IMG/VR virus record: IMGVR_UViG_3300050821_001265
Location: 5,111 to 69,110 of that record
Strand: one strand, 5' to 3'
Source of the DNA: a virus
DNA length: 64,000 nucleotides
Position numbers and translations under genes: made by a program. Below are positions 1 to 20,225 of this stretch, piece by piece. Below the pieces are notes generated by a model, which worked only from the letters and a program-made list of their open reading frames with translations, did no database searches and was not told the origin of the DNA. Position 1 is the first letter of the stretch. Every line of letters starts with the position of its first letter.

Positions 1-69
1 GATACGAAAGAAGATCAAGGAAGAGACCGGAATGATAGATGAAGTACCGATGTAAAAAGGGAGAACATC

Positions 70-231
70 ATGACTGGGACCAAACCTAAATGGGAATTTG
101 TAAATGAAGAGGAGGGAAGCTACACAGAGAGGCTAGACGTTCCAGGCGGTTGGCTGTATAGAATGGTTTTGAAGGAGTCAGAGGCAAACTTTGCGGTTGT
201 ATTTGTTCCACGTCCGGATCACATATCATGA
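70..231 (+). CDS. small hypothetical phage protein (53 aa)
   Basis: Manually translated MTGTKPKWEF...RLDVPGGWLYR...VVFVP; GGGAG RBS; ATGA overlap with the next gene. Confidence 0.6.
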   Translation: MTGTKPKWEFVNEEEGSYTERLDVPGGWLYRMVLKESEANFAVVFVPRPDHIS

Positions 232-797
232 ACGACCATCCATCAAACCCAGCAATCAGCCGTCTACGCGAGCGCACCGCGTACCTCCGCGATTTGCATC
301 TCCGTATCAAAGACACGGAAATGCAACTCTCTGCACTCCGCGCCGAAGCGCGCCAGCTAAGCGAACATGAACTAGTAGAGATGTTCAATGAGGCGGGAGC
401 CGACAGCATCGGGCTTCCACCACTGGGAAATCTCCCAGGAGTGGAAGCCGAACTACGTCCGTTCTACTCCGCGAACATCGCAGCCTCCTGGGATGAGGAA
501 CGTCGTGAAGAAGCCTTCACGGCGCTCCACAACGCCGGTGCCGCCGATCTCATTAAGACCAGAATCACACTCGACTTCCCGCGTGACTCCCGCGCGGCGG
601 TTGTTGCGACCGTTAAATGGCTACAGGAGCACGCAAAAGGCGCTTCTGTAGCCATTAAAGACAGCGTACACGCCTCCACCTTAACCGCCTGGGTGAAGGA
701 GTGCTTCGAGAAGGGTCGCGCTAATGACCTCCCTCCACTAGATGTCATTGGAGCATCCACAGGGTGGAACGTAATCCTAAAAGATCGAAAGGAATAG
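228..797 (+). CDS. conserved replication-module protein (coiled-coil N-terminus)
   Basis: 189-aa ORF; VHASTLTAWVKE motif resembles proteins found upstream of SSB-like genes in phage replication clusters. Confidence 0.6.
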   Translation: MNDHPSNPAISRLRERTAYLRDLHLRIKDTEMQLSALRAEARQLSEHELVEMFNEAGADSIGLPPLGNLPGVEAELRPFYSANIAASWDEERREEAFTALHNAGAADLIKTRITLDFPRDSRAAVVATVKWLQEHAKGASVAIKDSVHASTLTAWVKECFEKGRANDLPPLDVIGASTGWNVILKDRKE

Positions 798-800
798 ATC

Positions 801-1580
801 ATGGCAAGCAAAAGCAACAATACTGCAGTAGCAAAACAGGATCAATCTGCTAACGCACTTATTGATCCTGAACTGATGAAGCAGATCGAAGCTGATTCTG
901 GTCTCGGAGTATCGGACCGCGCAGAAGATCGCATACAGGCTTGGGTGAAAGTTCTTCATCAACTTTCGCCAGAGATGAACCCGCGTGATCCGGACTTCGT
1001 GAAGGATGCAAAACCAGGAGACATATGGATCAAGGCCCAAAATCTCCTGGTCCCAGGAGACAAGGGTATCATCTTCCAGCAATGCGCGTATCAACTCCGT
1101 TGGGTCGAATGGCCTGGCGCGGTCGGGAGCAGCGGCCAACCAGTCGCGCGCTACGATAAGGCGCCACCAAATTGGGAGTTCGGTGGCATTGTGACTGATG
1201 ACGGTCACCATATCATCGAGACCAGGTATCATCTGGGTATCGTCTACGCGGATGGTCTCGATCCGTTCCCGGCGCAAATTGCGTTCTCTTCCACCGGTGC
1301 TCCGGTATCAATAAATTGGAGCAATATACAGAAGCACAAGAAACTACCAAATGGGAAGATGGCGCCAGCTTATCTATCGCTCTACCGTCTGACGACGATA
1401 GAGCGGTCAAATGAAAAGGGTCGCTGGTTTTTACTTGATCCAAAAGATGCCGGCCATGCTTCATCTGATCAGATCAGATTAGGTATGGAGGTCTCCCACG
1501 ACATCAGCGAACAAAAACTCAAGATGGGAGAAGGCGAAAGCGGCGACCGTCAATATGCATCCGAAGAGATGCCATTATAG
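801..1580 (+). CDS. putative single-stranded DNA-binding protein
   Basis: 259 aa; KVLHQLSPE, KPGDI, WVEW and NEKGRWF motifs; acidic C-terminal tail; position in the replication cluster. Confidence 0.55.
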   Translation: MASKSNNTAVAKQDQSANALIDPELMKQIEADSGLGVSDRAEDRIQAWVKVLHQLSPEMNPRDPDFVKDAKPGDIWIKAQNLLVPGDKGIIFQQCAYQLRWVEWPGAVGSSGQPVARYDKAPPNWEFGGIVTDDGHHIIETRYHLGIVYADGLDPFPAQIAFSSTGAPVSINWSNIQKHKKLPNGKMAPAYLSLYRLTTIERSNEKGRWFLLDPKDAGHASSDQIRLGMEVSHDISEQKLKMGEGESGDRQYASEEMPL

Positions 1581-1585
1581 CAACT

Positions 1586-1719
1586 CGTGGTCCGTGCGAT
1601 GTGTGATGAAGGTCGTTCAGTCATCAGCCGAAGTTGGGTGGTTGATTTGCTCTCTCCTGTCCAACAAGGTTTCTGCAGCGCGCGCATGGCGCAAGTCCGG
1701 CGACGGAGCCACGCCTTTT
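1586..1719 (+). ncRNA. candidate structured intergenic RNA with anti-RBS loop (element A)
   Basis: Closing stem CGTGG-TCCGT (1586-1595) / ACGGA-g-CCACG (1703-1713); hairpin 1633-1665 whose loop is antisense to GGAGAGAGCAAA; short U-tract follows. Confidence 0.5.
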
Positions 1720-1729
1720 GGAGACAGCA

Positions 1730-2659
1730 ATGACCGTTCATATTGTAGGCGCGGGTTTAGCAGGTCTCCTCGCAGCCAACATGCTAAACAAACTCGATCC
1801 GCAAGTTTTTGAACGTCAGCTTAAACTACCAAATAACCATAGTGCTGTCCTGAGATTCAGGACCAGCGCTATAGGTGATGTGTTAGGAATACCATTCCGT
1901 CAAGTGACCCTCGTCAAGAGCATCCAACCTTGGAAGAACCCAGCAGCGGACGCTTTAGCCTATAGCATGAAGATCGGAGGCGAGAGCCGCAGCGATCGTT
2001 CTATCAACTCCGGTGAATTAGTTGATACGCGGTGGATCGCGCCTCCCAATTTGATAGAACTTATGTCAAAGGACATAAATTCGATCAACCTCGGAACGCC
2101 TTACCCCTTCAATGAAATGAAGGGGCAAGGAGTGCCGATCATATCCACAATCCCGATGCCTGTGCTAATGGATGAATTGAATTGGCCAGACAAGCCAGAG
2201 TTCCGCTTCATGCATGGTTACAATATCAGCGCCGACATCGAGCGCTGTAACGCCTATGTGTCTCTCATGGTCCCTAGTCCGGCCTATCCGTTCTCGCGTA
2301 TCTCTATCACAGGCTCCCAACTAATTGTGGAAATCCCACAATGCGATGGCAGCTTCGAGGTTGACGCGCGGACCTGGGCAACGATGGCCGCTTCGCTCCT
2401 CGGGATAGAAATAGAACGCGTGGGCAACGTGCGTAGCCTCCGTCAGACCTACGTTAAAATACTCCCGGTGGATGATGGCGTCCGTAGGGAGTTCATCTAT
2501 TGGGCATCGAAAGAATACAACATCTATTCCCTTGGGCGCTTTGCTTGCTGGCGACCTGGCTTGCTCCTTGATGACTTAGTCAAGGATGTAAGACTAATCG
2601 AAAGCTGGATAACGCGCCGCAAGGATCACTACGCAAGAGCAATCGCTGCTCGTGCGTAG
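1730..2659 (+). CDS. FAD/NAD(P)-binding oxidoreductase (UDP-galactopyranose mutase/PPO-like fold)
   Basis: N-terminal Rossmann motif IVGAGLAGLLAA; C-terminal SLGRFACW; RBS GGAG at 1720. Confidence 0.75.
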   Translation: MTVHIVGAGLAGLLAANMLNKLDPQVFERQLKLPNNHSAVLRFRTSAIGDVLGIPFRQVTLVKSIQPWKNPAADALAYSMKIGGESRSDRSINSGELVDTRWIAPPNLIELMSKDINSINLGTPYPFNEMKGQGVPIISTIPMPVLMDELNWPDKPEFRFMHGYNISADIERCNAYVSLMVPSPAYPFSRISITGSQLIVEIPQCDGSFEVDARTWATMAASLLGIEIERVGNVRSLRQTYVKILPVDDGVRREFIYWASKEYNIYSLGRFACWRPGLLLDDLVKDVRLIESWITRRKDHYARAIAARA

Positions 2660-2809
2660 TGATAACTGAAAGGAGGTGGTTCAAATGGGTACATGCTCGC
2701 GGTCTCAGGGACCCCTAGTGAGGAGCGCCGCGAGCATCAAAGTCTGAAGCACTTCTACCGGCGGTGGGCAGGCCACTGCTCACCGCCACCCAATCAAATG
2801 GAGAGAGCA

Positions 2810-3133
2810 ATGAACCTTTATGAAATCCACAAACGAATGACGAGTCATCTTTTCCCGGCATACTCAAGCGAAGATGAAAGGTTCCTAGCGCTCGCGCTTT
2901 GCGGCGAAGCAGGAGAGCTAGCGAACATAATCAAGAAGCGCTGGCGCGATGGTGTCGATTTATCGGAGGAGGCGCGCGATGAGATAGCTGACTGTCGCGT
3001 GTACCTAGAGTTGTTGGCTAAATGTTTTGACATTGAGGGCAGCAAACTAGATGATCGCGTTCAAGACAAGTTAGAGCGTGTTGTGAAAAAATTTGAAGCG
3101 CGGTTGGCGAGAGGAGGAGCGAATGAACTTTGA
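2810..3133 (+). CDS. mazG: MazG-like NTP pyrophosphohydrolase
   Basis: LCGEAGELANIIKK...DEIAD (EXXE...EXXD) motif; RBS GGAGAGAGCAATG. Confidence 0.85.
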   Translation: MNLYEIHKRMTSHLFPAYSSEDERFLALALCGEAGELANIIKKRWRDGVDLSEEARDEIADCRVYLELLAKCFDIEGSKLDDRVQDKLERVVKKFEARLARGGANEL

Positions 3134-3356
3134 AACTTTGCCGCGCGTCTATCCAGAAATAGAGATGTGGAGCGCGGAGAGCGGCATCTGGACATTCGTG
3201 ATTATTCAAGATGGTCATGACGCGCCGTTTACTGCTTCAGTAAAAATCTCAAGATCAAAACCATTCCAAGGTGAACGCTTCGATCTAGGTGAGTTTGCTT
3301 CGTTCGTCGGAGCGGAAGCCGCTTGTGAAAAGTTCAAGAAGGAGAGAGCACAATGA
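3123..3356 (+). CDS. hypothetical protein
   Basis: ORF with GGAGGAG RBS; overlaps both neighbours. Confidence 0.55.
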   Translation: MNFETLPRVYPEIEMWSAESGIWTFVIIQDGHDAPFTASVKISRSKPFQGERFDLGEFASFVGAEAACEKFKKERAQ

Positions 3357-4102
3357 AAGTATCGCTTATCGACTATACCGGCGCCGGAACCTCCGACCCG
3401 GCCGACTACGCCGCGTCAGTTCTAATCTTCACGAAGAACACACGTTTGCTAATGGCTCCAGCATTGATGAAAGACATACAAGGTTGGAGCCAAGATCGCA
3501 AAACCAAAGAACTGGAGTACATGGCGCACACGCTCCCTAGCTCCCATGAGTTCGTTCACTTCACGTTTATAATCGAAGGCGTGACGCGCGCTTTCACTCA
3601 TCAGTTGGTACGCACGCGAAATGCTTCGTATGCGCAGCAAGCTATGCGTATCCTCAACGTCAAGGGTTGGGAGTATGATACCGGACCTACGATTGAAGCT
3701 TGCGACCTGTGTCTTGATCGTTACCGCTCCGCAATGGCCGACATCGCTACCGCCTATGACTTTCTAATCGAGCATGGCGCTGCAGTTGAGGACGCTCGCG
3801 GCGTACTGCCGACGAACATCCTCACTAATATTGTTATGGGTATCAATATGAGGAATTTCGTGGGCCTGGTCAAGAAGCGATCAGGTCCAAGAATTCAATC
3901 GGAGTATCGTGCCGTGCTCGAACAAATGAGAGAACTAACAATGGGTATTTACCCATGGTTAGTTCTCTTCCTTGATCGAACAAAGGACCGCGCCTTAACT
4001 GATTTGGATAAAGAGATCAGCCAAGAGTCCGATCCAGTCAAACGGATGCGAATGATGAAGCTTGTCGATCAAGTTCGTACTGCTGACGTTGATGTAGACT
4101 AA
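3353..4102 (+). CDS. thyX: divergent flavin-dependent thymidylate synthase (ThyX-like)
   Basis: FTFIIEGVTRAFTHQLVRTRNASYAQQAMR and ARGVLP...N.R...R...Q.EYR match the ThyX fold; the signature RHRx7S is altered to RTRx7A. Confidence 0.8.
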   Translation: MKVSLIDYTGAGTSDPADYAASVLIFTKNTRLLMAPALMKDIQGWSQDRKTKELEYMAHTLPSSHEFVHFTFIIEGVTRAFTHQLVRTRNASYAQQAMRILNVKGWEYDTGPTIEACDLCLDRYRSAMADIATAYDFLIEHGAAVEDARGVLPTNILTNIVMGINMRNFVGLVKKRSGPRIQSEYRAVLEQMRELTMGIYPWLVLFLDRTKDRALTDLDKEISQESDPVKRMRMMKLVDQVRTADVDVD

Positions 4103-4117
4103 TAAAGGGAGACTACA

Positions 4118-4570
4118 ATGGCTAACGAATCAGAGTTAAAGAAATGGTCGGACGAACAGCTAGTGGATGCTTTGATACAACCGAAGCATTCACACATCGG
4201 CTTCATGATCAAAGAAGTTCTGCGCAAGCGTATGGCAAATATGGAGATTGGGACGCTCTATAAGTATGTAACCGAGACCCAAGCGAAGCCTAACGGACCG
4301 GCAGGAGCGCCGAGACCGGCAGGAGCGCCGGTTGTTGGGATTGGTTTGCTAACTGATCGCCAACTATTGGATGAAGTTGCAGCAACAGCAGCGTCCAATC
4401 CTGAACTCCCGGAGACACTACCAAACAAAATGTTACAAGAGTGCTGCGATACAGCTTCATATCAATATGAAGGCGAAGGATTGGATGGTGAAAGATTTCT
4501 TTCAGACTCTGCGAGGAAACTTTACAGATGGTGCCTGAGGGAGCTAAGAGAGCGCGCAGCAGCGTTATGA
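4118..4570 (+). CDS. hypothetical protein
   Basis: 150-aa ORF with GGGAG RBS. Confidence 0.6.
   Translation: MANESELKKWSDEQLVDALIQPKHSHIGFMIKEVLRKRMANMEIGTLYKYVTETQAKPNGPAGAPRPAGAPVVGIGLLTDRQLLDEVAATAASNPELPETLPNKMLQECCDTASYQYEGEGLDGERFLSDSARKLYRWCLRELRERAAAL
4296..4330 (+). repeat. 17-bp direct repeat GACCGGCAGGAGCGCCG x2
   Basis: Copies at 4296-4312 and 4314-4330; encodes PAGAP twice. Confidence 0.85.
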
Positions 4571-4752
4571 GAGAGCAAGCGAAGTGGGTGGAGTGGCTTC
4601 ATAGGCTCCACCAAGTTACTGGAGAGCTAGCGCGCAAGGGCGCTAGCGCCTCCTATGACGCTCCCACGCTAGTCGCGTGGGCGGACGAACTACGGGCAGT
4701 CAGTGAAGATATGCGAAGGGAGAGCAACCGTGGGCCGAACGATCCTAACTGA
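4567..4752 (+). CDS. hypothetical protein
   Basis: ATGA-coupled small ORF. Confidence 0.45.
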   Translation: MREQAKWVEWLHRLHQVTGELARKGASASYDAPTLVAWADELRAVSEDMRRESNRGPNDPN

Positions 4753-5155
4753 TATTGACGGGACCCTATCTAACTCGCGCTGGCGAGATGGATTGATCGG
4801 CGCTGTCAGCTGGGATGAGTATCACGAGAAGTCTCAGTATGATGAACCCTATCAAAACATGATAGGGCTCATCAGATCATTGCATGAACGCGAATACTAT
4901 ATCGTGGGTGTATCCTCGCGCCCGGAAAAGTTCCGCAAGATGACGATCGAGTGGCTCTTGAAACATCAAGTGCCGCTCGATGACCTTCTGCTTAGACCGA
5001 ACAACAACCATCGTCCTTCGCCAGAACTGAAACCCTATATGGTATCCATGAGAATGGCCTTCAATGATATCGCGTTCGTCTTTGACGACCGTGAGGACGT
5101 GATCGCGGCGTTCCGCGAAAGAGGTGTAGACGGATTACAGGTGATGCCATCATGA
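4730..5155 (+). CDS. HAD-superfamily phosphatase (PNKP 3'-phosphatase-like)
   Basis: DIDGT motif I, SSR motif II, K motif III, FDDR motif IV; GTG start after GGGAG. Confidence 0.85.
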   Translation: MGRTILTDIDGTLSNSRWRDGLIGAVSWDEYHEKSQYDEPYQNMIGLIRSLHEREYYIVGVSSRPEKFRKMTIEWLLKHQVPLDDLLLRPNNNHRPSPELKPYMVSMRMAFNDIAFVFDDREDVIAAFRERGVDGLQVMPS

Positions 5156-5312
5156 CAATAGATATAGAAGTCAATCTCAACTGGGTGCTGATCGAAAAGA
5201 CCCGGATAGAGCGGCCTGCGCGTATCTCTCCGGATCAATGGCTTGATATGTGGTTAGACTTCCGGGATATGTTTGGCTACAACTTGAGCGAACCGCCGAA
5301 AGATTTAATCAT

Positions 5313-6125
5313 ATGAAGCTAGCCATCACGATGATATCCAATCGGCCGGAGACTGCGCATGAGCGATGGCTCGCTTCTGTCCATAAGCTCAACAAGCTTA
5401 GGGACAAAGTCGATACATCCTTCAGCTTCGTCTTTGAAGCGCCGTTTACTCAGGCGTTAGCGCTACCCTTCCAAAAACTTGGAAGGGTAACGCTAAAGCC
5501 GAAGTCAAAAGCGCCAATCTACAACTGGTGGCCAAATCGAAATCAAGCTTGCGCTAACGCGCCGGATGCGGAATACTGGCTTATGACGGATGATGACTTC
5601 CGCTTTGGCGGACCTACTCCGCTTGGATACGAAAGCTGGCGACGCTATTACGATGCGATCAAATATCTTGACGCTAATCCATCGTGCGGCGGCGTTTGCT
5701 GTCTGCCGTTCTTGGGAGGTTCCGCGAGCGGCTCAAAGATCATGGTAGCTCATCGCGAATTGTTTGCCCTCAGTCGCGGTCTCCTCCTCCGCAACGTCGG
5801 CAACTTCCTCTATAGCTTAAATGTCTTCAACCTCCCAGGAGCATTAGACGAACCTGCTGCGTGTTTTTCACGGATTGAGCTAGGCTACTATTTCGCGCGG
5901 ACCTTTAACACTCCGACCGTATTGCCGCCAACGCATAAGGTGCAGCCAGGCAATACTCATCCGGCTTACAACTCCGATACGATTAACACAGTCGGCATTG
6001 GTAGTGTTATTCGTAAGCGCTACAACGATCCGGACTGGGATCATAACACGCGACGCATTCCAATCGGCTGTTTAGAGATGCATTTGAAAGCATCTCCAAA
6101 CAGCGTTCTAGGAAAACGACAATGA
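5313..6125 (+). CDS. GT-A fold glycosyltransferase
   Basis: N-terminal strand ITMISNR, then NRN...YWLMTDDD (DxD motif), typical of GT-A enzymes. Confidence 0.7.
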   Translation: MKLAITMISNRPETAHERWLASVHKLNKLRDKVDTSFSFVFEAPFTQALALPFQKLGRVTLKPKSKAPIYNWWPNRNQACANAPDAEYWLMTDDDFRFGGPTPLGYESWRRYYDAIKYLDANPSCGGVCCLPFLGGSASGSKIMVAHRELFALSRGLLLRNVGNFLYSLNVFNLPGALDEPAACFSRIELGYYFARTFNTPTVLPPTHKVQPGNTHPAYNSDTINTVGIGSVIRKRYNDPDWDHNTRRIPIGCLEMHLKASPNSVLGKRQ

Positions 6126-12003: not shown

Positions 12004-12022
12004 TAACAAAGGAGACTAGCAA

Positions 12023-12705: not shown

Positions 12706-12954
12706 ATGGCAACGACTCAACTCTACAACGTGTACTCCTCCCGAGAGGATACGTTCCTGATGTCAGCTCCGATGATGGTCATCGCGGCAGCATTCAATCT
12801 TCGCCGGGAAGCAGTCAAGCGTATTGTTATTGAACTCGACACAGGTTTGCCGAGTTCAACTTGCCACTTCAATGGTCGGTCGCCGATGCTGAATCTTGAG
12901 GCGATCAAGGTTACAAAAGGCCGCAGCTGGTATAGTCAAGGAGAGAGCAAATGA
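12706..12954 (+). CDS. hypothetical early protein
   Basis: RBS AACCAGGAGTAAA. Confidence 0.65.
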   Translation: MATTQLYNVYSSREDTFLMSAPMMVIAAAFNLRREAVKRIVIELDTGLPSSTCHFNGRSPMLNLEAIKVTKGRSWYSQGESK

Positions 12955-17247: not shown

Positions 17248-17709
17248 ATGGCCAAGCGCCAACCGAAGTTCCAGAACGTTGAGACGAACCTCGCTGATGC
17301 CATCAGCGAGGCTTTCGGAAATATGAACGAACTATCCAGCGAATGTCGCGACGTTTGCGACAATATGCCGGATAGTCTCCAATCGTCCGCGCGTTACGAA
17401 GCGCTCGACAACTCTGCGTCGGAGTTAGAAAAGGATGAGCCTGACTTCCCGGATGCGCTCCAGGAATTGAAGGTTACAATCCAGCGTCCGACGAAACTAC
17501 GCAAACAATCGCGGCGGGACCGCGCGAACGAAGCCGAGACCGTCCTGCGTAACTGCGTTGACGCTATCCAATCTTGGGTAGACGAAGCACCTAACACTGG
17601 CGTTGATACGACCGATGCCCGTGAAGACGCCGCGCAGGAATTACGGGACGCTTGCGAGGAGTTAGCCGATGCTATCGGCAACTGCGAATTTCCCGGCATG
17701 TTTGGATAA
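17248..17709 (+). CDS. hypothetical acidic helical protein
   Basis: RBS GGAGTAAAGCAAATG; DNMPDSLQSSARYE motif. Confidence 0.65.
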   Translation: MAKRQPKFQNVETNLADAISEAFGNMNELSSECRDVCDNMPDSLQSSARYEALDNSASELEKDEPDFPDALQELKVTIQRPTKLRKQSRRDRANEAETVLRNCVDAIQSWVDEAPNTGVDTTDAREDAAQELRDACEELADAIGNCEFPGMFG

Positions 17710-17719
17710 GGAGAGAGCA

Positions 17720-17971
17720 ATGAGACTTATAATTGTATTTTGCGTACTCGCTGCCACATCGGCAGCGAGCGCGCAACAGACTGTTATCCGCGACGGTCGC
17801 GGGAATACGGTAGGAACAGTGACCACCGACAGCGCGGGCACCCAGACCTTTCGTGGCGCCAATGGAAATACCACGGGCACCTCGACCCGCGATAGCGCCG
17901 GTACAGTAACCTATCGCGATGCTCGTGGCAATACGGTAGGCACCGCGACCCGGAGCGGAGGCCGCCGATGA
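17720..17971 (+). CDS. small exported repeat protein
   Basis: Signal peptide plus three RDxxGNTVGT-like repeats. Confidence 0.7.
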   Translation: MRLIIVFCVLAATSAASAQQTVIRDGRGNTVGTVTTDSAGTQTFRGANGNTTGTSTRDSAGTVTYRDARGNTVGTATRSGGRR

Positions 17972-18165
17972 TGGTAATTTCAAAACTCGTCAAGACAGAG
18001 CTAACATCGATCTGTCTTGCCGCTCTGACTGACTTCCTTCGATCCACGCGCGGAGCGAATATATTTGGAGCGAAGGCTACGGTCACGGAGCCGAAGCCCA
18101 ATACGCTTCAAGTTCGCGCTAGCGATGGCCGCTACTTTGAAGTCATCATCAAGGAAACCTTCTGA
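17968..18165 (+). CDS. hypothetical protein
   Basis: Coupled ORF. Confidence 0.5.
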   Translation: MMVISKLVKTELTSICLAALTDFLRSTRGANIFGAKATVTEPKPNTLQVRASDGRYFEVIIKETF

Positions 18166-18338
18166 TGAAGAAGGAGAGAGCAAAGATTTGTTCCATCTGT
18201 GACGAACCGTTCACGGAATACGGAAACAACGCGGAGCCGGTCAACTCTGGTCGCTGCTGCGACGATTGTAACTGGGAAGTGGTGCTACCAGCGAGGTTGG
18301 TAGCATTCTTCAAACTACCAAAAGGAGAGAAGCAATGA
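18165..18338 (+). CDS. small Cys-rich (zinc-binding) protein
   Basis: Manually translated MKKERAKICSICDEPFTEYGNNAEPVNSGRCCDDCNWEVVLPAR...; C..C...GNNA.P...GRCC..CN pattern common in phages. Confidence 0.65.
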   Translation: MKKERAKICSICDEPFTEYGNNAEPVNSGRCCDDCNWEVVLPARLVAFFKLPKGEKQ

Positions 18339-19879: not shown

Positions 19880-19901
19880 ATCTTCAGAAAGAGAGAGCAA
19901 A

Positions 19902-20225
19902 ATGAAAGATGTACTATACCAAATTGCGTTCCCGCCAATGACGTGGAATCAACTAGGAAAGGTCCTGGAGGGTCTCCCCAAAGGGATGTTCCCGGAGATA
20001 CAACGATTGGTCGCGCGTGACGACCCGAGGCCAAACGGTAGCGCCGCGCCGCCGCGCGGCGAGCTAGAAGACGCCATCTTAATGGCGCTTAAGTCCCGCG
20101 CCTTATCCCACGCGGAGCTAGCGGCGAAGACCGGGCGCAATCCGAAGTCGGTCTACTCCGCGCTGACGCGGATGAAGCGCAAGAGGATGGTGACGAAGAA
20201 GGAGGGTCGCTATGCGCGTGTATGA
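19902..20225 (+). CDS. winged-helix DNA-binding protein
   Basis: C-terminal AILMALK....SHAELAAKTGRNPKSVYSALTRMKRKRMV. Confidence 0.7.
   Translation: MKDVLYQIAFPPMTWNQLGKVLEGLPKGMFPEIQRLVARDDPRPNGSAAPPRGELEDAILMALKSRALSHAELAAKTGRNPKSVYSALTRMKRKRMVTKKEGRYARV

Follow-up and report, generated by a model that had tools for sequence, protein, structure and literature searches.

A conserved three-way-junction RNA of an uncultured soil phage carries a loop complementary to early-gene initiation regions

INTRODUCTION

Regulatory RNAs of lytic phages have, to our knowledge, been little studied. The T4 RegA protein is a translational repressor that occupies the initiation regions of a class of early phage mRNAs and so lowers their translation, and the icaR mRNA of Staphylococcus aureus reportedly undergoes anti-Shine-Dalgarno pairing between its 3′ and 5′ untranslated regions. 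The c4 RNA of phages P1 and P7 is cut from a precursor by RNase P. As outlined in one source, loop sequences of c4 pair around the ribosome-binding site of a downstream mRNA of the same operon and block its translation (PMC12197685). Known phage antisense RNAs, c4 and others, are portrayed there as mostly controlling one gene and as belonging to temperate phages (PMC12197685). Here, we describe an RNA element at positions 1586-1713 of a 64,000-nucleotide (nt) stretch of viral DNA, positions 5,111 to 69,110 of the 69,110-nt IMG/VR virus record IMGVR_UViG_3300050821_001265. This stretch is called the window, and coordinates refer to it unless another sequence is named.

The record comes from an uncultured soil phage of the lytic type that is related to PB1 and Pam3. 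The element occupies most of a 149-nt spacer (1581-1729) that separates the open reading frame (ORF) 801-1580, which is like gp34 of Pam3, from the ORF 1730-2659, which encodes a Rossmann-type protein referred to as FAD-like (flavin adenine dinucleotide). An earlier note on this DNA had pointed to a multibranch RNA between these two genes, with a loop antisense to ribosome-binding sites, and had read it as either a trans-acting small RNA or a cis-acting switch.

RESULTS

A conserved RNA family outside Rfam

Judged by sequence comparison, the element belongs to a small conserved family of + strand three-way-junction RNAs that lies outside Rfam. Homology to distant relatives became visible only through the reading of spacers and through covariance models. 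The spacers of L011, L019, L037, and L039 share a 3′ motif (GCCGYAAG, a hairpin with a GUGAUG loop, and GCCRC), which resembles GGCGCAAG-UCCGGCGACGGA-GCCACG in the window. A covariance model built from L039 alone (R1) and searched against 469 kb matched L037 (E 6.7e-9), L004 (2.1e-7), L019 (1.7e-6), L011 (3.5e-5), and L005 (0.018), although E-values from short-calibrated models such as these are rough. A second model (R2) was built from the five best compact members and excludes both the window and its close relative, the contig L082. Its consensus reads uGGCGGU-GCgug-uuagGgccUCUCCguuuacgg-cacGC-CGuAAG-ugGG-aGUGAUGc-CCca-GCCGCC, and the loop of its second helix (P2) has the form ...ccUCUCCg..., with UCUCC conserved. 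Six compact members of 61-76 nt were found in distant relatives, and the element was present as a single copy in all five records searched, three of which are complete genomes.

When R2 was run with its filters off on window positions 1-6000, the best match in 12 kb was 1585-1715 (14.9 bits, E 0.029), with P1 aligned as CGUGGU/GCCACG, P2 as CCGUG/CAUGG, the junction strand J as CGCAAG, and P5 as UCCG/CGGA. The window copy was missed under default filters. L082 scored E 0.11, with the model placing the 5′ side of P1 at an internal GUGGU. The window copy shares the family's helix order (P1, P2, P5), its GGU/GCC and CGYAAG, its UCUCC loop, its placement on the strand of the gene cluster upstream of the FAD-like gene, and its single-copy state.

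The helices covary. Among the five aligned sequences, pairing is kept in 97.3% of cells, and both partners change in 9 of the 15 pairs. None of 500 shuffles reached these values, but the alignment was fitted to the model and so favors the structure. Sliding the partners by 1-3 columns left 33-65% of cells paired and at most two double-change pairs. When all eight members are aligned, partly by hand, 117 of the 120 cells are paired and double changes are seen in 11 of the 15 pairs; all 17 pairs of P1, P2, and P5 in the window element are standard. GGU/GCC, together with a junction U.G pair, is invariant in all eight members, and CGYAAG is found in seven, with L005 carrying UGGUAAC instead. The many G.U pairs, the invariant junction pair among them, would be A.C mismatches on the other strand, indicating an RNA of + sense. 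The structural conservation in relatives that the earlier note had asked for is seen across eight phages. Alignments made with MAFFT were not used, as one of seven spacers misaligned the helices; a four-sequence one was also set aside.

The GUGAUG loop of P5 (NGUGAUGN) is found in the six compact members, whereas the window has a GCGA tetraloop and L082 ACCA. Because these two carry tetraloops, the NGUGAUGN loop is treated as a subgroup feature. Single-sequence minimum free energy (MFE) folding gives the junction in four of the six compact members. In L019 (1037-1102) and L004 (91-155), the MFE structure instead lacks the junction and has the UCUCC loop paired to the GGGGG/GGGAG strand of P5; these predicted folds hint at an internal anti-anti-Shine-Dalgarno switch.

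No Rfam family matches the element. The cmscan search of window positions 1400-1900 at E<=10 returned nothing relevant (only SgrS, E 6.9), and the loci of L019, L039, L037, and L011 gave nothing at E<=1.

A start-codon motif and its single inverted copy

With at most one mismatch allowed, the start-codon motif GGAGAGAGCAA has 10 matches in the window where 0.97 would be expected, a count that none of 100 shuffles reached; these matches are not due to chance. Nine copies lie on the + strand, each of them at a start codon or no more than 20 nt into an ORF. The sole − strand copy (1647-1657) sits in the spacer that holds the element and is the only inverted copy in the 69-kb genome. Over the whole genome, the related pattern GGAG.{3,7}GCAAA?TG has 17 + strand matches and a single − strand match. 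More broadly, early and middle + strand genes share the initiation consensus AGGAGA-N2-4-GCAA(A)UG, of which the nine GGAGAGAGCAA copies are the sharpest form. Further examples of this consensus in the window stand at 12010, 12227, 13717, 15594, 15818, 18323, 19482, and 25116, and late − strand genes are without such an initiation region.

Across the window genome, the loop has complements of at least 10 nt at nine same-strand sites and one opposite-strand site, and the six of at least 11 nt are all at gene starts; shuffled loops average 3.6 matches of at least 9 nt. The reverse complements that the earlier note had listed for 1645-1658 are exact (12939-12952, 14 of 14; 18172-18184, 13 of 13; 17709-17720, 12 of 12; 2800-2810, 11 of 11), and the adjacent ribosome-binding site at 1720-1730 does differ from the block by one base (10 of 11). 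Within the 14-nt block of the window, the family's UCUCC core corresponds to 1653-1657.

This extended complementarity was not seen farther afield. In the three relatives with complete genomes and compact elements (G001-G003), the loop has about as many matches as shuffled loops do, and the motif does not rise above background in 80 more distant loci (502,908 nt; 11 matches over both strands). The matches of compact members being at chance, the family-wide feature is the 5-nt anti-Shine-Dalgarno core UCUCC, and the extended block with its shared initiation motif is, from the sequences compared, a specialty of the window's clade.

The close relative L082

One metagenome scan yielded one locus, the 5,058-nt contig L082, which is the sole close relative found. 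Its gp33, gp34, and FAD-like proteins stand in the same order as in the window and are 68%, 68%, and 81% identical, respectively. The proteins P0002, P0003, and P0005 are 73-83% identical. The spacer is only 56% identical between the two phages, vs 65-70% for the flanking genes, and within it the block GATTTGCTCTCTCC is conserved at 14 of 14 positions. The other conserved pieces are a 12-nt identical run at the 5′ end, inside a longer near-identical stretch, GTTTCTGCAG, and shorter pieces close to the 3′ end. P2 in L082 reads CCGUGCC/GGUGCGG, with one compensatory and three wobble changes relative to the window, and three pairs of P5 are compensatory between the two phages.

L082 also keeps the motif alongside the block. 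The forward motif stands at three + strand gene starts in 5 kb, exactly at 4243 and with one mismatch at 4693 (ThyX) and 2203 (gp34), and the single inverted copy is again in the spacer. The loop with its own 3′ flank (CCGUUC) is predicted to pair over 15 contiguous base pairs (bp) with the gp34 start (-30.5 kcal/mol), whereas the downstream FAD-like start matches the block only at GGAG (-12.9 kcal/mol). The genes that carry the motif differ between the two phages: ThyX has it in both, the FAD-like gene only in the window, and gp34 only in L082. In the window, the gp34 start shows no loop complementarity by inspection, and of the duplexes predicted for 13 starts, its own (-17.0 kcal/mol) ranks with the weaker ones.

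Architecture of the window element

The multibranch fold proposed for the window is supported by comparison with relatives and not by folding energy. The closing stem that had been placed at 1586-1595/1703-1713 holds in its outer 6 bp (1586-1591/1708-1713), but its inner part (1592-1595/1703-1707) clashes with the covarying helices P2 and P5 (1696-1699/1704-1707). An inner stem drawn at 1599-1605/1681-1687 found no comparative support, and the hairpin at 1633-1637/1661-1665 is kept in L082 as GUGG/CCAC, that is, in two sequences only. Enforcing the homology-derived helices costs 1.4 kcal/mol (-42.6 vs -44.0 for the free MFE). The P2 domain is expanded to 84-85 nt in the window and L082, and the two extra hairpins that it contains are supported by these two sequences only.

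Nothing else in the genome is complementary to the second conserved single-stranded block, GUUUCUGCAG; the self-complementary CUGCAG within this block might mediate dimerization or a tertiary contact. An internal GUGGU (1638-1642 in the window, 3067-3071 in L082) duplicates the 5′ strand of P1 and might take its place opposite GCCAC, which would give an alternative conformer. The features of the element, its neighbors, and its candidate targets are listed in Table 1.

Table 1. Features of the RNA element, the neighboring genes, and the initiation regions complementary to the loop (window coordinates)
Feature	Positions	Strand	Basis or remark
Upstream gene, Pam3 gp34-like	801-1580	+	PF23977, E 6.7e-27
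Whole RNA element, expanded three-way junction (P1, P2 domain, J, P5)	1586-1713	+	Top match of model R2; hand alignment with seven relatives
P1 5′ strand CGUGGU, partner 1708-1713	1586-1591	+	GGU/GCC invariant in 8 of 8; outer three pairs covary
P2 5′ strand CCGUGCG, partner CGCAUGG	1592-1598	+	Covaries across the family
P3 hairpin GAUGA/UCAUC in the expanded P2 domain	1605-1625	+	L082 equivalent GUGUAC/GUACAC; two-sequence inference
Hairpin H GUUGG/CCAAC, 23-nt loop holding the block	1633-1665	+	L082: GUGG/CCAC, 22-nt loop
Anti-initiation-region block GAUUUGCUCUCUCC, core UCUCC being the family-wide loop motif	1644-1657	+	14 of 14 in L082
Second conserved single-stranded block GUUUCUGCAG, containing self-complementary CUGCAG	1669-1678	+	Identical in L082 after a 1-nt shift
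P2 3′ strand CGCAUGG	1683-1689	+	R2 alignment, hand alignment, L082
Junction J CGCAAG (family CGYAAG)	1690-1695	+	7 of 8 members
P5 hairpin UCCG-GCGA-CGGA	1696-1707	+	L082 CUAG-ACCA-CUAG; compact members NGGG-NGUGAUGN-CCCN at the same position
P1 3′ strand GCCACG, then CCUUUUGG	1708-1713	+	Hand alignment
Initiation region of the FAD-like gene, GGAGACAGCAAUG	1720-1732	+	10 of 11 match to block; duplex -22.7 kcal/mol
Downstream gene, 309-amino-acid (aa) Rossmann-type (FAD-like)	1730-2659	+	Sub-threshold NAD_binding_8 match, E 0.0064, sole Pfam match; near ThyX in relatives
MazG-like initiation region	2800-2812	+	Exact 11-nt complement
MazG-like gene	2810-3133	+	
ThyX initiation region, AGGAGAGAGCA	3340-3355	+	11-nt complement; same sequence before L082 ThyX
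ThyX gene	3353-4102	+	
Initiation region, 260-aa gene (function unassigned)	12939-12953	+	Exact 14-nt complement; strongest predicted duplex, -25.7 kcal/mol with the 18-nt block
Initiation region, 83-aa protein with apparent signal peptide	17709-17722	+	Exact 12-nt complement
Start of 57-aa Cys-rich ORF	18165-18184	+	Exact 13-nt complement inside codons 3-7
Initiation region, 107-aa gene	19890-19904	+	11-nt complement

Genomic setting and database searches

Genes of the phage run on the + strand to ~29 kb, and the structural genes lie on the − strand. The earlier note had placed the element between an SSB-like gene and an FAD oxidoreductase. The position between these two genes is right, but the upstream gene is gp34-like, with a role as SSB not demonstrable, and the oxidoreductase assignment comes down to a sub-threshold Rossmann match. 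More than 2,000 metagenomic homologs belong to the FAD-like family, for which there is no Pfam model. The genes of 1730-5155 (Rossmann/FAD-like, MazG-like, ThyX, a 150-aa unknown, and a PNKP-type HAD phosphatase) look like a nucleotide-metabolism or nucleotide-modification module. ARAGORN found no tRNA or tmRNA in the window.

The gp34-like gene stands upstream of the FAD-like gene in many relatives and directly precedes the element in L037 and L039. In 67 of the 77 analyzable distant loci, at most 32 nt separate the FAD-like gene from the ORF before it, which it adjoins or overlaps, and in the other 10, the spacer is at least 86 nt. Among loci L002-L081, the overlap is often 4 nt (ATGA-type). 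The RNA element was seen only where this coupling is broken or, in L004, one gene farther upstream.

Several searches returned no further members. Scans of IMG/VR for close relatives (single-protein queries, a clade-specific peptide pattern, and element DNA patterns) found none, and among GenBank phages, there was no DNA match and protein matches were all below 60% identity (at most 37% among the matches listed). A blastn-short search of the element against the 80 distant loci returned nothing. An element DNA pattern gave 10 matches in genome contigs, about the chance number; nine were without the 5′ block, and one with a three-mismatch block was taken as chance. The pattern CCGTAAG..GTGATG..GCC hit 75 loci in IMG/VR, of which only three, all already-known contigs, were real members, and a further element pattern returned only two already-known contigs.

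Two side observations concern the genes near the element. A 17-nt segment of L039 (2926-2942, UUGUUAGGUCCUCUCCG), comprising the end of P2 and its loop, is the exact antisense of a hairpin-forming segment in the ThyX gene of other relatives (L068 4752-4810, L043 5776-5834, L065 2901-2959); there, the segment is part of an insertion encoding ...KLKTGEDLTIRDS..., and it is absent from the ThyX gene of L039. In addition, one soil DNA sequencing run (X2) differs from the window over a variant stretch of the FAD-like gene, 2449-2572.

DISCUSSION

Weighing the explanations

In our judgment, there is an even chance that the element is a c4-like antisense RNA that pairs with translation-initiation regions and lowers the translation of early genes. 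It would be co-transcribed with the early nucleotide-metabolism genes. In the window's clade, its UCUCC core is lengthened to the 14-nt GAUUUGCUCUCUCC, the exact complement of the initiation consensus (A)GGAGAGAGCAA(A)UG found on at least nine early or middle genes of the same strand. The block would base-pair with these initiation regions either inside the polycistronic RNA or after release of the element, hiding the Shine-Dalgarno sequence and the start codon and thereby reducing translation of the early-gene set. Its targets may include neighbors, namely the FAD-like gene in the window and gp34 in L082, as well as distant genes. Of the two modes of action offered by the earlier note, action in trans on multiple targets fits better, as judged from complementarity alone, while the shared core of both proposals, a conserved structured + strand RNA with a loop complementary to initiation regions, stands. 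The block and the motif are kept together in L082.

A number of results weigh against such an antisense role. Folding of the element is no better than that of shuffled sequences: RNAfold z-scores in the window are +1.36 (1581-1732, + strand), -0.08 (− strand), and -0.10 (1586-1713), and those of relatives are -0.30 in L082 and -0.22 to -2.30 in compact members. In single-sequence ensembles, the block has a mean unpaired probability of 0.47, or 0.12 in a 300-nt context, and the predicted cost of opening it is ~5-6 kcal/mol for the element by itself, rising to as much as 8.6 kcal/mol in the 300-nt context. Pyrimidine-rich loops in general match Shine-Dalgarno sequences somewhat. The chance-level matches of G001-G003 count on the same side, as does the predicted pairing of the loop with the adjacent start (RNAduplex), which in the compact members L039, L037, and L019 is no better than that of shuffled loops (fractions 0.39, 0.08, and 0.14). 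Extended complementarity was seen in no clade but the window's, so that the multi-target reading is supported in effect by a single lineage of two sequences, and in L082, the motif count (four, allowing at most two mismatches, vs 1.77 expected) is reached by 22 of 200 shuffles and is not significant by itself. Among sequencing runs, no RNA run was found to contain the sequence. Of the four soil DNA runs compared, three (X2, X3, and X4) have contigs over the element that are identical to the window and so carry no comparative information, and X5 has no depth there. Finally, a consensus scan of 1300-2000 found no sigma-70-like + strand promoter and no canonical terminator, though the promoter type of the phage or host may differ.

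Possible, but on balance unlikely, is that the element acts purely in cis as a leader (riboswitch-like, protein-operated, or thermosensing) in which the UCUCC loop masks the next Shine-Dalgarno sequence and the other matches are by-products of a shared consensus. The placement of the element is consistent with this: in seven of the eight members, P1 ends at most ~20 nt before the next ribosome-binding site and at most ~35 nt before its start codon on the same strand, and where 67 of 77 relatives have the genes tightly coupled, the element would create a separately controllable start. The conserved GGU/GCC, CGYAAG, and GUGAUG loop resemble a binding pocket or protein site, the adjacent start matches the block at 10 of 11 positions in the window and L011 has a CGCUCC loop that matches an adjacent GGAGCG, and the L019 and L004 folds suggest two alternative conformers. 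However, a cis-only role fits poorly because the L082 loop, its block intact, pairs far better with the upstream gp34 start than with the downstream one (-30.5 vs -12.9 kcal/mol). The 14-nt conserved block is also far longer than masking of a GGAG requires, the element of L005 lies ~95 nt from the next start, and no ligand or protein can be named. Cis action may still operate in distant members that keep only the UCUCC core. Rather unlikely, in turn, is a scheme in which a ligand or protein operates the junction and so exposes or hides a loop that mimics the 16S rRNA tail and that, in this clade, is lengthened to fit the shared initiation region of early genes; the stable RNA would accumulate and shut off the translation of early and middle genes, leaving ribosomes available to late mRNAs, which lack the motif.

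We regard it as distinctly unlikely that the RNA is structured for some other job, such as RNase processing or stability, attenuation or termination, or scaffolding of a protein, with its ribosome-site complementarity unused. A run of four U residues follows P1 within ~10 nt in five of the eight members, the element sits where relatives show tight translational coupling, and family-wide, only the 5-nt UCUCC is shared, with compact members lacking extended targets. This would leave unexplained the exact 14-nt complement of an over-represented motif and the 15-bp extension into the flank in L082, and the terminator scan was empty. It is more improbable by far that the region holds no functional RNA at all and is instead an inverted gene-start relic, a DNA-level protein site, or a small protein-coding gene, even taking these together. 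An inverted copy of a recurrent motif could indeed come from rearrangement, and two ORFs run through the region, one of 48 aa on the + strand and one of 63 aa on the − strand. Yet these reading frames are not kept between the window and L082, and the small-protein reading was rejected. Moreover, the covarying helices and strand-specific G.U pairs in eight phages, the conservation of the block while its flanks diverge, and the placement of all nine forward copies at a set distance from start codons, which suits an RNA-level rather than a DNA-level role, all speak for an RNA.

Significance

What is new here is a covariation-supported RNA family with no Rfam match; the principle of such pairing is familiar, and the unusual part is the class-wide extended target motif. 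In one clade, the 14-nt extension matches a class-specific initiation consensus common to about 10 early genes. If the pairing is functional, it would give the phage a compact and programmable timing of translation for a gene class, and it would explain the unusually uniform sequence between the Shine-Dalgarno sequence and the start codon of early genes. The pair of loop and motif could be reused in reporter systems. Should the element prove to repress a class of genes, it would be an RNA counterpart of T4 RegA, and its targets would change over evolution as individual gene starts acquire or lose the motif.

Comparison with known systems

Among described RNA families, the int-alpA RNA motif (RF02996) gave no cmscan match in the window or in the loci of the four relatives. 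In outline, the family resembles three-way-junction riboswitches such as the purine riboswitch in its size of ~65 nt, its closure by P1, its two hairpins, its conserved junction, and its position just upstream of a ribosome-binding site. It differs from them in having no Rfam match and in joining P1 directly to P2, and P5 directly to P1, with no unpaired nucleotides, and no complementarity between its two hairpin loops is seen by inspection. The conserved GUGAUG loop that might form part of a riboswitch-like pocket is replaced by a GCGA tetraloop in the window copy. L082 recalls icaR in that the element comes just after gp34 and its loop pairs over 15 bp with the ribosome-binding site of gp34 itself. 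In the window, by contrast, the gp34 start is poorly complementary, and the best matches belong to other genes.

In its proposed action, the element is most like c4 (Rfam C4, RF01695): each is a small structured RNA that is complementary to ribosome-binding sites and is encoded in one operon with its targets, ahead of them and on their strand. There is no match to RF01695, so the element is not a member of the c4 family, and it is instead a three-way junction with CGYAAG and a UCUCC loop. The window's clade has many candidate targets where c4 has one, and the host phages are lytic-type PB1/Pam3-like phages. With T4 RegA, the analogy is functional only: RegA is a protein that recognizes RNA, whereas the effector proposed here is an RNA that would act by base-pairing.

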